Origin: a virus
Direction: 5' to 3' (one strand)
Length of the DNA stretch: 64,000 nt
Virus record (IMG/VR): IMGVR_UViG_3300045988_183620
Shown here in pieces: positions 14,361-19,269 of this stretch (position 1 is its first letter; every line of letters starts with the position of its first letter). The position numbers and the translations under genes were made by a program. The notes under the pieces were generated by a model. It was not told the origin of the DNA. It did not search any database and was given only the letters and a program-made list of their open reading frames with translations.

Positions 14361-15047
14361 CTATATTTTGCGAAGCTGCAAATCGCTGACATCTGCAATG
14401 TCTCGGTTCTCTTTCGTGACATCTTTGACCGCGCGTTTCCTTGACCAGAGAACACTCAGGACGCGGTTGCGAAGGTTGTCGTCTTCGATGGCAGATGCTG
14501 CTTTTACGATTTCTGACTCACTCAAGTAGACTGTTCCACCCTGCTGAATCATGGTCGGATACCCGCTGTCATTTCTCAGGACCTTTTTATCAAGGCCATC
14601 GTAGGCGTATATCGGGTCAATGAGAAGCACGGTGGCGATTCCGTCCAACTGTTCTTCCGTGACGCCCTGAAAGACGAGCCAGCGGTGCATGAACGAGTCA
14701 TCCGGGATACTGTTACTGTAAAGAGAGAACAGTGGAGATACCAATTTGTTGCTCGAATAACGCTCATGCTCTTCATCGACATTCAGGTTGTCCTGCCAAA
14801 GCTTCAGCATCAAGCCATCGCCGTAGTAGACGAACGTGTCGTGAAAGAACCCGGACGAGCACACTTTGATGTGGTCGATGTTTGCTACTTCCTCACGGCG
14901 GCAGAGTACAAAGCGAGTGCCTTCACTCTTGCCGTAGGCTTCGTCATCCCACTTGACCGTGACTCGTTCCAGCACAAACCTGTCGTTGAGGAGTTTCAGA
15001 ACGGCCTTGATGGGAAATACGCGCCAGTTCATCAGATGTTCCTCCAC
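14361..15047 (-). CDS. hypothetical protein (last gene of the AAA+/zinc-ribbon/nuclease operon)
   Basis: 228-aa ORF overlapping the upstream gene by 16 nt. Confidence 0.5.
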   Translation of the reverse strand: MEEHLMNWRVFPIKAVLKLLNDRFVLERVTVKWDDEAYGKSEGTRFVLCRREEVANIDHIKVCSSGFFHDTFVYYGDGLMLKLWQDNLNVDEEHERYSSNKLVSPLFSLYSNSIPDDSFMHRWLVFQGVTEEQLDGIATVLLIDPIYAYDGLDKKVLRNDSGYPTMIQQGGTVYLSESEIVKAASAIEDDNLRNRVLSVLWSRKRAVKDVTKENRDIADVSDLQLRKI

Positions 15048-15475
15048 TCTTTCGCAATCTGGTCGTACTCGGCCATTTCTTTTTTCGTGACCTTGCCGTC
15101 CTTTTTATACAGCGTGACGCGCTGGATATAGTTGGCGGCATTGGCATCAAGTCGGCGCATGGCTTCGGCAGCAGAACTCGTCATAGTGACACCACGATAA
15201 GAGCCGCCGGAACCCAGGACATCCGGCTCATAGTAACCGGTCTCGTAGTAGACCGCCACATCCTGTCTGTCAGAAGAGGCTGCGTCCAGGATGACCTTTG
15301 CGGTATCCTTGCCGCCGCCCGTATAGGAGTTGCGGATGATGCGAGCGCCACGGTCATTTCCCTGCTGTTCATAGGCTTCGGCAATGAACTCAACGTAGGT
15401 CTTGAACTTCTGTTCGTCACCGTCTCGATGCGCTTCAATGAGCTTTCCGAGTGTGACCACGCCAACTACATTCAT
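15032..15475 (-). CDS. hypothetical protein
   Basis: 147-aa ORF in the operon. Confidence 0.5.
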   Translation of the reverse strand: MNVVGVVTLGKLIEAHRDGDEQKFKTYVEFIAEAYEQQGNDRGARIIRNSYTGGGKDTAKVILDAASSDRQDVAVYYETGYYEPDVLGSGGSYRGVTMTSSAAEAMRRLDANAANYIQRVTLYKKDGKVTKKEMAEYDQIAKEWRNI

Positions 15476-15551
15476 TGCTTTTGCTCCTCTCTTGAACTGT
15501 CTACATTATACCATTTTTGAGGTTCCGACTCGTACTGTGTAGGCCAATGAT

Positions 15552-16226
15552 TCATAGATTCTTAACAAACTTACGCGTTTTTACAGGAATGAATCTGTAA
15601 TGACTAGTCGCATCTTGTTCGACTCTCCATTTCCACATGTGGCCTTGCATCTGTTCAGAATAGAGCATCTGCTCGGCCGGTAAAAGCAGCCCTATGCCGT
15701 AGTATTTTGTAAGTGGTCTGCCCTTTTCGTGGTTCTCAGCAGCACGAGGAAAGGGGCGCTTCTCCCGTTTTAATTCATATCCGGCATCGAGCAGTTCTGT
15801 GGCATAGAGCGCCGCATTCACCCGATGAAATACATATAGCATTTGGGTGCTTGAGAAGTAATAGAAGATACAGTTGGCGTTTTTATAAAGCCACCCATCT
15901 GAGTGATGGAGCGTTGACTCATTGGTGACAGGATTGCAGTTGATGACATTGCCATTCGCGTCAAATAGATAAGAGTCAACGGCCTGTTCCAGGAAGATGT
16001 TGCCGGTAGTGTATGTATCCGTTTTGGCGTCGAGTGTCACTGTGCGGCCATCCTTGCGATGAATCAGGAAGTCAATATCCTGTTCTTGATACGCTTTGAT
16101 GTTTCGCACATCTTCGTAGCTCTCAAAGCTCAACCTTCCCAATTCGCAGCTCTTTTTTACGTAGTCAATTGCCACCTGCTCTCCGAGCTTTCCGACTGCA
16201 AGCTGGTCTTTCATATTGTAAGCCAA
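15552..16226 (-). CDS. Mrr/NERD-like PD-(D/E)xK nuclease-fold protein
   Basis: GKLGEQVAIDY ... DIDFLIH ... TLDAKTD matches the restriction-endonuclease core G..E / D / (D/E)xK. Confidence 0.5.
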   Translation of the reverse strand: MAYNMKDQLAVGKLGEQVAIDYVKKSCELGRLSFESYEDVRNIKAYQEQDIDFLIHRKDGRTVTLDAKTDTYTTGNIFLEQAVDSYLFDANGNVINCNPVTNESTLHHSDGWLYKNANCIFYYFSSTQMLYVFHRVNAALYATELLDAGYELKREKRPFPRAAENHEKGRPLTKYYGIGLLLPAEQMLYSEQMQGHMWKWRVEQDATSHYRFIPVKTRKFVKNL

Positions 16227-16232
16227 GAGGTA

Positions 16233-16973
16233 TCACCTCCGCACTTTGCGGCAGGCGGGACACTTAGGACCATACTTGCATACGGTAAAGAGCAACGGCG
16301 TCCATTCTCCGTCCTTGCCATAGCCGCAATCGGGACATACCAAAGCGATTCGTTCACCGCTTCCGGCGGTAAGTTCATCAGGCCTAAACTTATTGGCTGT
16401 CTGATGCCACATAGCTGCAATCTGAGGGTATCCAACGCTGATGATAGGCTTCGTCGTGCATTTACGAATCCGCTTCATTCTGCTATGAGAAATCCTTAAT
16501 CTGGCGCATTGCGGACAGCCGGTATGATTCACGCCACTACCGCAAGCGAAAGCCAGGAGCGGATGCCACTCGCCATTTTGACCATAGCCGCAGGTCTTGC
16601 AGACAAGATAGACATGCAGACCGCTGCCGGATGTGATTTGGTCAGGCTGGATGGTATTTAGAGTCGGATGCCACTGTTCGGCAATTTCAGGATGAACTGT
16701 AGCCACATCATTCACGCCTTTGACCACGATTCGTCCAGCACAGACAGGGCAGCCGCCTCTCGTGCGGCAGACAGAAGAAAGCACCGGCCGCCATTCTCCG
16801 TTTTTGCCGTATCCACACCGGGTACAAATCAAGGCAATGCGACGGCCGCTTCCACACGTGATTTCATCAGGACCACAGTCATTGGCAGTCGGGTGCCACA
16901 TTGCAGCGATTTCAGGATGCTCTTCTGCCACTGTGCCACGGGGTTCATAGAGCTTAATCTCAAATTCTCGCAT
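16233..16973 (-). CDS. triple treble-clef zinc-ribbon protein (EWHPTxN-type; resembles the zinc-ribbon domain I recall as DUF4379)
   Basis: Three repeats of about 70 aa: HPEIAxxWHPTxN...CGSG...C..CGYG.NGEW...C...GCP.C. Confidence 0.6.
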   Translation of the reverse strand: MREFEIKLYEPRGTVAEEHPEIAAMWHPTANDCGPDEITCGSGRRIALICTRCGYGKNGEWRPVLSSVCRTRGGCPVCAGRIVVKGVNDVATVHPEIAEQWHPTLNTIQPDQITSGSGLHVYLVCKTCGYGQNGEWHPLLAFACGSGVNHTGCPQCARLRISHSRMKRIRKCTTKPIISVGYPQIAAMWHQTANKFRPDELTAGSGERIALVCPDCGYGKDGEWTPLLFTVCKYGPKCPACRKVRR

Positions 16974-17877: not shown

Positions 17878-17934
17878 GGTTTACTTACCTCTATAAATGA
17901 AAAGACCCACCAAACGGCAGGTCTTGATTCTTTG

Positions 17935-18612
17935 TTATTTATTTGCAAAGTAGGTGTCTGTGTCAGCTCTCGCGGCTCTCGCCTCAATATCTGCTTCGTT
18001 CAGATACCGAACACTTTTGAAGGAATAGTTGGTATCGCCCTTTGTGCGAACATAGATGCCGCGCTTTGCGTATGTCAGTCCAGGCGTCATATCGCTGTCG
18101 GCCGTAGTTAGCAGTTTGATAATCGGATGCTCACCTGTATCATCGACAACGCAAAGGCTCACATCCGCATTGCCATCGCAAGGGTAATCTTCTGGCAGCT
18201 TTACTTCGTAATCCACCACTACAAGTTCCAGGTTTTCGATGCCATCTCGCAGCTTATCAAGAGCTGATTCATCAGTTCGTAGTACAGAAAGGGAATTACT
18301 GAGCGCAATGGTATTGCTGATGTAATCTTCATTTTCTGTTTCGGTAGTGATTTTAGTGATGCACATTTCAATGTCATGCCATCGCCCATCGGTCAAAGAG
18401 CCATTTGAAACTGTTCCCCAGTCGCCGAGAGCGATAAGGTTATTGTTCTCGCCTTGCACCGGTTCTGTTTCCATACTGGTTTGAGCTGGAAGGCCCAGCG
18501 TTTCGCTGCTTTCAGCCGTTGCCACAGGGAAATCGGCGGGCAGCGTGCTGACGGGATAGCAGGCAGTCAAGGCAACAGCAAGCGCCGGAATAATCAAAAG
18601 CAGCTTTCTCAT
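17935..18612 (-). CDS. lipoprotein
   Basis: Signal peptide plus lipobox LTACYP. Confidence 0.6.
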   Translation of the reverse strand: MRKLLLIIPALAVALTACYPVSTLPADFPVATAESSETLGLPAQTSMETEPVQGENNNLIALGDWGTVSNGSLTDGRWHDIEMCITKITTETENEDYISNTIALSNSLSVLRTDESALDKLRDGIENLELVVVDYEVKLPEDYPCDGNADVSLCVVDDTGEHPIIKLLTTADSDMTPGLTYAKRGIYVRTKGDTNYSFKSVRYLNEADIEARAARADTDTYFANK

Positions 18613-19133
18613 TGTTCCTTCGCCGCCTTTTTTATTTTCTTTCTTCCTCTTTTACGGCGGATTCCTGCTTTGTGCATAATGTCGTATCCACAGGTGGTGC
18701 AGAAACCATACTCCTTAGCAAGTGACTGAATTGATTTCTGCGGGTTTTCACGGACTGCTTGGAGATAGCGTTCCTCTCTTTTTAGCCGTTCTTTCTTTGC
18801 CTTTGTCATCACATCAGAATCCCGCTGGCAAGTATAATTCGGGTCTACCTGCTTGATGACGCTATAAATCGTCGCGCGGTTCATGTTGTATTCTTTTGCC
18901 AGTTCAACGGCTGTCACGCCCTTGCTGTACTTGCGAGCAATTTCTTTGTCTCTCTGTTTCTTCCATTTATGGAAGTTCATAGAGTGTTCTTTGCAGTTTG
19001 CTTCACGAGATACCCTGTAGCAGATGTATTTCGATACTTGATGTTTTGCGGCTACGTTTTTGATAGACATACCGCTCTTCAAGTCCTCGACAATGAGTCG
19101 ATTTCTTTCTGCCATTGCTACTTTATCAATCAA
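18609..19133 (-). CDS. multi-HTH DNA-binding regulator (paralogous architecture to the 28823-29446 product)
   Basis: Repeated HTH-like segments (SIKNVAAKHQVS; TAVELAKEYNMNRATIY; SIQSLAKEYGFC). Confidence 0.55.
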   Translation of the reverse strand: MIDKVAMAERNRLIVEDLKSGMSIKNVAAKHQVSKYICYRVSREANCKEHSMNFHKWKKQRDKEIARKYSKGVTAVELAKEYNMNRATIYSVIKQVDPNYTCQRDSDVMTKAKKERLKREERYLQAVRENPQKSIQSLAKEYGFCTTCGYDIMHKAGIRRKRGRKKIKKAAKEQ

Positions 19134-19221
19134 TGCTTTGTCCTCCTTGCAAACAAAAAAGCAGGCTCTTAGAAGAACCTGCTTTAGTGGTCGTCAATGC
19201 ACTTTTTGGTCTACAATACTC

Positions 19222-19239
19222 AGTTTACTCAATTCGCAC
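19222..19239 (-). promoter_or_regulatory. promoter-like motif TGCGAATTGAGTAAACT upstream of the 18609-19133 operon
   Basis: See the finding on the promoter motif family. Confidence 0.4.
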
Positions 19240-19269
19240 AAACGTGCAAGAAGGCAACATAAAACGGTT

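Follow-up and report, generated by a model that had tools for sequence, protein, structure and literature searches.

Seven minus-strand genes at positions 14361-19250 of the window (the 64,000-nucleotide stretch of IMG/VR virus record IMGVR_UViG_3300045988_183620 that was analysed here) encode an AAA+ ATPase of the IetA family, a triple zinc-ribbon protein, a PD-(D/E)xK-fold nuclease, a multi-helix-turn-helix (HTH) protein, a lipoprotein and two proteins of 147 and 228 amino acids (aa). We tentatively favour, at somewhat short of an even chance, the view that this interval is a mosaic of at least three accessory cassettes, in which an autonomous IetA-type ATPase is co-transcribed with a zinc-ribbon-guided nuclease and other cassettes flank the two. 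Judged by its sequence, the ATPase is an IetA-family member without IetS; it is an uncharacterised variant and not a recognisable defence system. The interval as a whole lies in a variable region of a huge gut phage, adjoining the tRNA array, and is no defence island of a bacterium. The superfamilies of the parts and the named family of the ATPase are already known. What is new is that huge phages carry a protease-less IetA-like ATPase with a PD-(D/E)xK nuclease and a zinc-ribbon protein as its neighbours, as well as the size of the partner-less phage family.

The original prediction assigned the ATPase to the classic clade of AAA+ proteins on account of its Walker A and B motifs, second region of homology and arginine finger, and all of these motifs are indeed present. 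The protein matches PF00004 (5e-29) and aligns to the D2 domain of p97/Cdc48 in the PDB at 1e-36, and the Walker A (GEPGTGKT), Walker B (LCLDEID), sensor-1 (GTTN) and arginine finger (R228/R229) motifs are invariant across the family. The protein was also said to match no named system, which turns out to be incorrect: residues 20-300 align with positions 38-310 of the 374-position PADLOC model of IetA, the ATPase of the IetAS system (PDLC02196; 1.7e-61, 207 bits). The NCBIfam model 'anti-phage ATPase IteA' is matched with 190 bits, under its equivalog cut-off of 510 bits, and the best family-level match is to a PHROGs family of unknown function, phrog_3757 (1.7e-66).

IetAS acts against phages and also as a toxin-antitoxin system of plasmids. 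It combines a toxic protease, IetS, with an antitoxin-like ATPase, IetA, and the defence mechanism of the pair is unknown (PMC13069673); no mechanistic or structural paper on IetAS was found in the literature that was searched. A canonical pair is present in Paenibacillus phage Yyerffej, where IetA is followed by a 695-aa peptidase. In the alignment, the window ATPase shares with this IetA the N-terminal domain (motif LxRxxxxGDxR) and the whole ATPase core, and the gene order also resembles that of IetAS in that the ATPase comes first and a gene for a potentially toxic enzyme comes next. There are, however, several differences. The window ATPase, besides scoring below the equivalog cut-off, lacks the C-terminal HTH tail of about 55 aa that is found in the Yyerffej protein, the sole canonical IetA that was aligned. 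It is encoded in a huge phage and is followed by a zinc-ribbon protein and a PD-(D/E)xK nuclease. Its pore loop 1 has Ala149-Leu-Gly opposite the Trp-Phe-Gly of Cdc48 D2, that is, the aromatic residue, a Tyr in IetA, is replaced; among the homologues, many proteins have Tyr, Phe or His at this position, and the huge-phage clades have Ala, Gly or Ser. Finally, the comparison with PADLOC yields the ATPase of the system and not its IetS partner: no match to a peptidase, including the S8 subtilisin-like proteases to which IetS belongs, was detected in the seven proteins or in the four proteins encoded upstream.

A TRIP13-like identity of the ATPase, which had been suggested previously, did not survive this comparison, with 52 bits (1.2e-14) for TRIP13 against the score for IetA. 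We therefore rejected the TRIP13/HORMA/CBASS interpretation, given that the IetA match is stronger by about 155 bits and that there is no HORMA or cyclase (CD-NTase) signal. The likeness to the TRIP13/Pch2-HORMA branch of CBASS consists in a classic-clade AAA+ protein with a weak TRIP13 match, and the difference in that no HORMA-like or CD-NTase gene was detected at the window locus.

Homologues of the ATPase, about 300 aa in length, are very common in gut phages. With a threshold of E<=1e-20, they make up at least 389 clusters, and the membership of some clusters exceeds 2,000 sequences; hundreds of the homologues show 50-75% identity, equal size and the same domain layout. Inspection of the genomic context of at least 60 loci encoding such homologues (34-58% identity) places them in early or replication-type regions, together with genes for DNA methyltransferases, SSB, HNH, Cro-like and AcrVA2-like proteins. 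The genes immediately downstream of homologues with 51-55% identity in other phages belong to about 30 unrelated families. Among these are a 95-aa membrane protein, found at 21 loci, and DUF551, SSB, DUF3102, pentapeptide, DUF1599, ribbon-helix-helix (RHH), RepL-like and AcrVA2-like proteins. Thus, the solo IetA-like ATPases of gut phages (PHROG 3757) differ from the one in the window in having mostly unrelated downstream genes, and only the huge-phage clades pair the ATPase with the nuclease found here. An alignment scan of 185,579 species genomes, with candidates limited to 600 stretches, recovered, among the best 80 of 505 AAA+ matches, only generic FtsH/Cdc48-type ATPases with at most 39% identity, and provided no synteny information.

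This distribution could also be explained if the solo ATPase were a phage counter-defence factor, either an antitoxin mimic directed against IetS-type proteases of the host or a dismantler of some other host immune complex, with the neighbouring nuclease genes being unrelated passengers. Judged from context alone, such a role would be in line with the function of IetA as the antitoxin of IetS (PMC13069673), with the retention of the IetA N-terminal domain and an intact ATPase, and never IetS, in the phage proteins, with the company that the gene keeps in several lineages of phages, where DNA methyltransferases, an AcrVA2-like protein and further products of the early region are encoded around it, and with the abundance of the family in gut phages. 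However, the same regions contain SSB and RepL-like replication genes, so that a role in replication or host takeover fits equally well, and we consider counter-defence to be quite unlikely.

Two other contexts of the ATPase family were observed. In another phage lineage (L254-L256, positions 1-396 on the minus strand and 4001-6112 on the plus strand), an AAA+ homologue with 51% identity is followed by an AcrVA2-like protein, and a member of the nuclease family (85 bits) is encoded about 3.5 kb upstream on the opposite strand, beside an HD-domain gene. In a 189-kb contig (L257, 4001-5562), an AAA+ homologue with 54% identity is located between sortase/SpaA pilus genes and rimM/trmD, in surroundings that resemble a Gram-positive bacterial chromosome; the protein encoded next has 177 aa and transmembrane helices at its N-terminus.

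Loci related to the interval were gathered through the AAA+ gene, the nuclease gene and an upstream backbone gene, and were scored with hidden Markov models built for this analysis; nuclease loci were located with a degenerate DNA pattern for KxDTYxTGNxxxE. Five clades, denoted A to E, were compared. In clade A, where the AAA+ protein shows 96-99% identity to that of the window, all seven genes are present. Clade B (74%) also possesses all seven, with a zinc-ribbon protein of two repeats and sometimes an insert of about 2 kb before the gene for the 228-aa protein. In clade C (60%), three multi-HTH genes are followed by the AAA+ gene and then directly by the nuclease gene (33% identity); the lipoprotein and zinc-ribbon genes are missing, the gene for the 147-aa protein is often truncated and that for the 228-aa protein is usually absent. 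Clade D (67%) has two HTH genes, the AAA+ gene, the nuclease gene and the tRNA array, with the 147/228-aa pair about 4.5 kb away. In clade E, two HTH genes and the AAA+ gene are followed by a gene for a 420-aa HTH protein, the zinc-ribbon and nuclease genes and the tRNA array, and the 147/228-aa pair lies about 7 kb away. Accordingly, the lipoprotein gene is found in clades A and B only, and the zinc-ribbon gene in A, B and E and not in C or D. Conserved synteny of all seven genes is therefore restricted to clades A and B, with clades C to E lacking or relocating two to four of them, and the only cohesive stretch across the five clades consists of the AAA+ gene, the zinc-ribbon gene where present, and the nuclease gene.

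Outside these clades, the nuclease is found without the ATPase. In a sister clade (L350, L351, L355, L358 and L383), a nuclease homologue is present with no AAA+ gene within 8 kb, and distant members of the nuclease family in other phages stand alone. We also observed that, in the same five loci of the sister clade (for example, L351, 18603-20390 of a 240-kb contig), the nuclease homologue (123 bits) is directly preceded by a 312-aa protein that, on reading the translation by eye, has a signal or transmembrane segment and the look of an EndA-like DNA/RNA non-specific nuclease with the motif NRCHLIGFQL. Furthermore, in a 291-kb contig (L261, 4001-5209) and altogether in 5 contigs, a natural in-frame deletion has created a fusion in which the AAA+ protein breaks off near residue 281 and continues as the C-terminal half of the nuclease; the deletion removes the E/D/ExK residues of the nuclease and keeps most of the AAA+ protein.

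The nuclease and the zinc-ribbon protein are separated by a gap of 6 nucleotides (nt) in the window. The nuclease is predicted to adopt the alpha-beta-beta-beta-alpha-beta core fold of restriction endonuclease-like proteins, with I-Ssp6803I, Eco15I-N, NhoI and RecU as structural neighbours, and little or no variation is seen at residues E16, D50, D52, (D/E)66, K68, D70 and E80 among 48 diverse relatives and all the phage clades. Absence of the catalytic residues from homologues had been named as a finding that would speak against the nuclease; they are kept, and by this measure the enzyme is catalytically intact. The PD-(D/E)xK fold and residues predicted originally are thus upheld, and the label Mrr/NERD-like is not: the Mrr_cat and NERD models do not match the window nuclease and match only 1 and 4, respectively, of the 48 relatives, weakly. 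We rejected Mrr/NERD as a family label in favour of an unnamed PD-(D/E)xK family, which comprises 1019 clusters. No match to Pfam or PDB sequence profiles was obtained for the window nuclease, and this, together with a conserved extra C-terminal region (A163, N165, G179), sets it apart from I-Ssp6803I, RecU, Hjc and Mrr/NERD/PDDEXK_5.

The zinc-ribbon protein consists, as predicted, of three treble-clef repeats, which belong to DUF4379 and span about 60 aa each (PF14311, 7.7e-25; 87.3 bits against a Pfam gathering cut-off of 24.5). Each repeat has the form WHPTxN ... CxxC ... CPxC, with the Cys ligands read from the sequence, and the protein weakly resembles those portions of HNH endonucleases from phages that bind DNA. 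DUF4379/CapR-like repeats are DNA-binding modules that precede Vsr-type nuclease domains in phage homing endonucleases (PMC12350094). The window resembles these enzymes (CapR/DUF4379/DUF723-like repeats with Vsr/EDxHD domains) in the combination of DNA-binding repeats with a nuclease of the PD-(D/E)xK superfamily. It differs from them in that the repeats and the nuclease are encoded by separate open reading frames (ORFs), that the nuclease is from another PD-(D/E)xK family, and that it occupies a fixed position in five clades instead of occurring sporadically, with no repeats in clades C and D. Nor does the nuclease show the sporadic presence among close relatives that is expected of a free-standing homing endonuclease: every locus of clades A to E with enough flanking sequence has it in the same place, and only the zinc-ribbon gene is patchy.

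The first two genes of the interval may form a unit of their own. The HTH protein contains three HTH units, as had been expected for a multi-HTH regulator; the central one matches Pfam Mor (1.9e-8) and HTH_23 (4e-7), and the PHROG 'late transcriptional activator' families are matched at 2e-10. The central unit is the point of similarity to the Mor/C late activators of Mu-like phages, which have one HTH unit compared to the three tandem units of the window protein. In addition, the Mor-like multi-HTH genes of the window type constitute an expanding paralogue family of 160-420 aa proteins, with one to four copies in the related clades; in clades C to E, up to four copies are found upstream of or within the AAA+/nuclease block (L025, 3824-5955; L101, 5896-7164, and equivalents). 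The lipoprotein was recognised correctly, its signal peptide ending in the lipobox LTAC, and has no match in the family libraries (Pfam, PHROGs).

The last two genes also travel together. Homologues of the 147-aa protein are confined to this group of huge phages, and the 228-aa gene accompanies the 147-aa gene; in two loci (L346, 16391-18143, and L387) the pair is partially duplicated in tandem, in the order 147, 228 fragment, 147, 228. The 147-aa protein has three N-terminal helices followed by an alpha/beta part, and its N-terminus weakly matches positions 6-54 of the PADLOC IetA model (E 5e-4), as do those of 6 of 7 family members (best 8e-5). A comparison of the 147-aa family with the AAA+ family by hhalign detected no relationship (probability 0.4%). 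The AlphaFold2 model of this protein, with a pLDDT (predicted local distance difference test) score of 48, was too poor for a fold search. Searches against PDB profiles returned only sub-threshold LOV/PAS (E 0.02) for the 147-aa protein and I-DmoI (E 0.14) for the 228-aa protein, both of which we treat as non-evidence, and the 228-aa protein has no match in any library searched. The HORMA-like fold that had been proposed for these two proteins finds no signal by sequence.

A recurrent intergenic motif, TnyGTGCGAATTGnnTA, precedes the whole interval. Seven copies are present in the window compared to 0.16 expected, all of them intergenic and on the minus strand (19226-19242, 20390-20406, 32374-32390, 43332-43348, 44029-44045, 47621-47637 and 54723-54739). 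The motif has a longer form, (c)TTGnnnnTnyGTGCGAATTGnnTA, and in several copies is followed by an ATTGTA..ATAAAT-like element. The promoter-like sequence that was originally noted at 19222-19239 (the GTGCGAATTG motif) is one of these copies and is thus real; the motif, judging from its recurrence and placement, is a putative promoter. In all five clades, one copy is found upstream of the first HTH gene, and none was found before the AAA+ gene or the gene for the 147-aa protein. At least three copies (19242, 32390, 43348) have a GC-rich hairpin and a T-run in the leader that separates them from their gene, and an equivalent of the hairpin in the HTH-gene leader of the window is present in clade B (L007). 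The motif and the promoter-proximal terminators may represent a phage-specific promoter under antitermination control.

The terminator-like hairpins before the HTH and AAA+ genes are both strong and conserved, and two signals lie further inside the interval. The hairpin upstream of the AAA+ gene is kept in clades A to E, and because its stem sequences differ between them, the structure itself appears to be under selection. The TATAAT before the gene for the 147-aa protein has kept its location in three clades (A, B and C). Together, the hairpin and the -10 element suggest that the interval is split into units. The closing intrinsic terminator that had been predicted was not found: between the 228-aa gene and tRNA-Thr at 14265, the sequence offers no more than a weak hairpin that lacks a T-run. 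Of the single operon originally proposed, the one recurrent promoter motif stands, and the internal hairpins, the internal conserved -10 element and the missing end terminator speak against it; taken together, these signals are compatible both with three transcription units and with a single read-through or antiterminated unit.

One could go further and regard the seven genes as one antiterminated operon for a single multi-component defence or exclusion system, including one with a TRIP13/HORMA-like CBASS accessory. Each locus has one promoter motif, which in all clades precedes the HTH block and not the AAA+ or 147-aa gene; this, the tight packing of the genes and the promoter-proximal hairpins that fit antitermination are all compatible with such a system. 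Nevertheless, it is very improbable: the lipoprotein, zinc-ribbon and 228-aa genes and the HTH copy number vary between clades, the 147/228-aa pair has in clades D and E been relocated beyond the tRNA array, the 147-aa gene is preceded by a conserved -10 element of its own, and the IetA match far exceeds that to TRIP13, with no HORMA or cyclase signal. The gene calls themselves agree with the original prediction, with all seven minus-strand ORFs at their predicted positions (Table 1) and overlaps of 14 nt between the AAA+ and zinc-ribbon genes and 16 nt between the 147-aa and 228-aa genes; the HTH and lipoprotein genes also overlap, by 4 nt.

Table 1. Genes and putative regulatory elements of the interval, in the order of transcription.
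Feature	Position	Strand	Basis or remark
Promoter/operator-like motif copy TTTGTGCGAATTGAGTA, preceded by cTTGCAC	19222..19242	-	recurrent intergenic motif
Terminator-like hairpin, 12 bp + T-run	19158..19185	-	HTH-gene leader, ~25 nt before start codon
Triple-HTH protein, 174 aa	18609..19133	-	Pfam Mor, HTH_23; PHROG 'late transcriptional activator'
Lipoprotein, 225 aa	17935..18612	-	signal peptide MRKLLLIIPALAVALTAC, lipobox read from sequence
Terminator-like hairpin + T-run	17902..17925	-	directly upstream of AAA+ gene
IetA-family AAA+ ATPase, 305 aa	16960..17877	-	PADLOC IetA, phrog_3757, NCBIfam IteA, PDB Cdc48/p97
Triple DUF4379 zinc-ribbon protein, 246 aa	16233..16973	-	PF14311, 3 stretches
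PD-(D/E)xK-fold nuclease, 224 aa	15552..16226	-	E16, D50/D52, D66-x-K68, TGN..E80
Extended -10-like element TGGTATAAT	15505..15513	-	~30 nt upstream of 147-aa gene
147-aa protein, no assigned function	15032..15475	-	weak IetA N-terminus match
228-aa protein, no assigned function	14361..15047	-	no library match; overlaps 147-aa gene

Under the mosaic interpretation that we prefer, all cassettes would be located downstream of one copy of the recurrent phage promoter motif. The first would comprise the Mor-like triple-HTH DNA-binding protein, a likely transcription regulator, and the lipoprotein, which might be an envelope protein of the superinfection-exclusion type. The second would consist of the IetA-family AAA+ ATPase followed by the triple zinc-ribbon protein and the PD-(D/E)xK nuclease, and the third of the 147/228-aa pair with its own -10 element. 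The ATPase is envisaged as an autonomous hexameric protein remodeller, with the IetA-type N-terminal domain engaging a protein client, that in most carrier phages would work without a fixed neighbour. The zinc-ribbon repeats would recognise DNA and the PD-(D/E)xK protein would cut it, a logic similar to that of phage endonucleases that combine modular DNA-binding repeats with a nuclease, and the pair might be used either for DNA processing or for an attack on the DNA of the host or of a rival phage. The ATPase and the nuclease would accordingly be co-transcribed neighbours and not an obligate pair. This view is supported by the changing gene content of clades A to E, the AAA+ homologues with unrelated downstream genes, the nuclease homologues without an AAA+ gene, the in-frame deletion that spares most of the AAA+ protein, the DNA-binding role of DUF4379/CapR-like repeats in homing endonucleases, and the internal hairpin and -10 element.

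Several observations weigh against such loose coupling. The only known role of the IetA family is to control a toxic effector that is encoded just downstream (PMC13069673). The AAA+ and nuclease genes are found in one order, on one strand and within 2.8 kb of each other in every locus of the five clades with enough flanking sequence, and this order is kept despite the divergence of the nuclease to 33% identity and the turnover of neighbouring genes, a cohesion that exceeds what chance synteny usually produces. The spacing between the two genes is tight in clades C and D (28-40 nt), there is no terminator between them, and each locus, with its single promoter motif, is consistent with a read-through or antiterminated operon. 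In addition, in one independent phage lineage only (L249, L259, L304), a gene for a zinc-ribbon-GIY-YIG nuclease overlaps the stop codon of the AAA+ gene by 8 nt.

From these observations, the alternative arises that the interval contains an effector-swapped IetAS-like pair, in which the ATPase would control the downstream nuclease, either holding it inactive or freeing it on a trigger, and the zinc-ribbon protein would be the DNA-binding subunit; the uses of such a pair might be addiction-like stability, exclusion of rival phages or timed DNA destruction. The 147-aa protein, with its N-terminus similar to the IetA N-terminal domain, could be an adaptor or competitor. By analogy with IetAS, this is a possibility to be taken seriously, if a doubtful one. 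It is consistent with the IetA-specific similarity, including the N-terminal domain, the canonical order of ATPase and effector in phage Yyerffej, the persistence of the AAA+/nuclease order in five clades of an otherwise fluid region, and the parallel arrangement of AAA+ and zinc-ribbon-GIY-YIG genes in the other lineage. Also in its favour are the conserved hairpin, which places the AAA+ gene at the start of a sub-unit that continues without a terminator into the nuclease gene, the invariance of the catalytic residues of the nuclease and the N-terminal match to the IetA model that 6 of the 7 members of the 147-aa family show. However, most AAA+ homologues have no effector-like neighbour, nuclease homologues exist without the AAA+ protein, unrelated genes separate the two in clade E, the aromatic residue of the pore loop that threads the substrate is Ala in the window clade, and the 147-aa and AAA+ families show no profile-level similarity. 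The original suggestion that an ATPase, a zinc ribbon and a nuclease make a defence-like composition is in the same position: membership of the ATPase in the IetA family and its adjacency to the nuclease agree with it, and the location in a phage, the lack of IetS and the broken synteny do not.

A still broader possibility, which we consider unlikely, is that IetA-family ATPases are a widespread phage-borne hub with interchangeable toxic effectors, and that the solo copies are antitoxin mimics directed against host IetS. The effectors may include the S8 protease in Paenibacillus phages, the zinc-ribbon protein and PD-(D/E)xK nuclease in huge phages, the zinc-ribbon-GIY-YIG nuclease in a gut-phage lineage and, possibly, small membrane proteins.

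The window itself is phage DNA, with 22 tRNA genes, all on the minus strand, between 3744 and 14265. Its relatives, found among the viral contigs of IMG/VR, come from samples of the human gut and reach 389 kb, and the nearest relatives of its DNA polymerase are found in Oscillospiraceae, Evtepia and Clostridium phages (45-47% identity). The source is a huge gut phage, probably with a Clostridia/Oscillospiraceae host; a megablast search of the interval against GenBank phages produced no match. Two other regions of the window also deserve mention. Between 10301 and 13498, successive tRNA genes are separated by spacers of about 500-1200 nt with a GC fraction of 0.52-0.55 and no convincing ORFs. 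In a search of these spacers against Rfam, a single family reached its gathering score, an HDV-like ribozyme (HDV-F-prausnitzii, RF02682; 45.3 bits, threshold 44) at 10306-10379 on the minus strand, which is located 4 nt upstream (5') of tRNA-Ser(tga) at 10213-10301. Ribozymes of this kind that adjoin gut-phage tRNAs have been described as theta ribozymes (PMC10879173). The region 6358-9408 has the highest GC fraction in the window (0.56-0.57) and contains mirror-image long ORFs on both strands, of 1016 aa (plus) and 961 aa (minus), with very weak family matches only (phrog transposase, 3.6e-4; zf-H2C2_2, 0.0026).

The implications depend on the relationship between the ATPase and its neighbours. 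If neither a gating nor a solo role applies, the locus would be ordinary accessory phage DNA. If the ATPase acts alone, it would be a candidate counter-defence or host-takeover factor, and if it gates the nuclease, the locus would count as a new relative of a defence system, carried by a phage and with its effector swapped. If the hub interpretation were true, these loci would belong to an unrecognised family of phage IetAS-like modules involved in conflicts between phages or between phage and host. The large family of protease-less IetA-like ATPases and the long-kept adjacency of the zinc-ribbon protein and the nuclease in one huge-phage lineage provide handles on the targets of IetA and on the exchangeability of its effectors.

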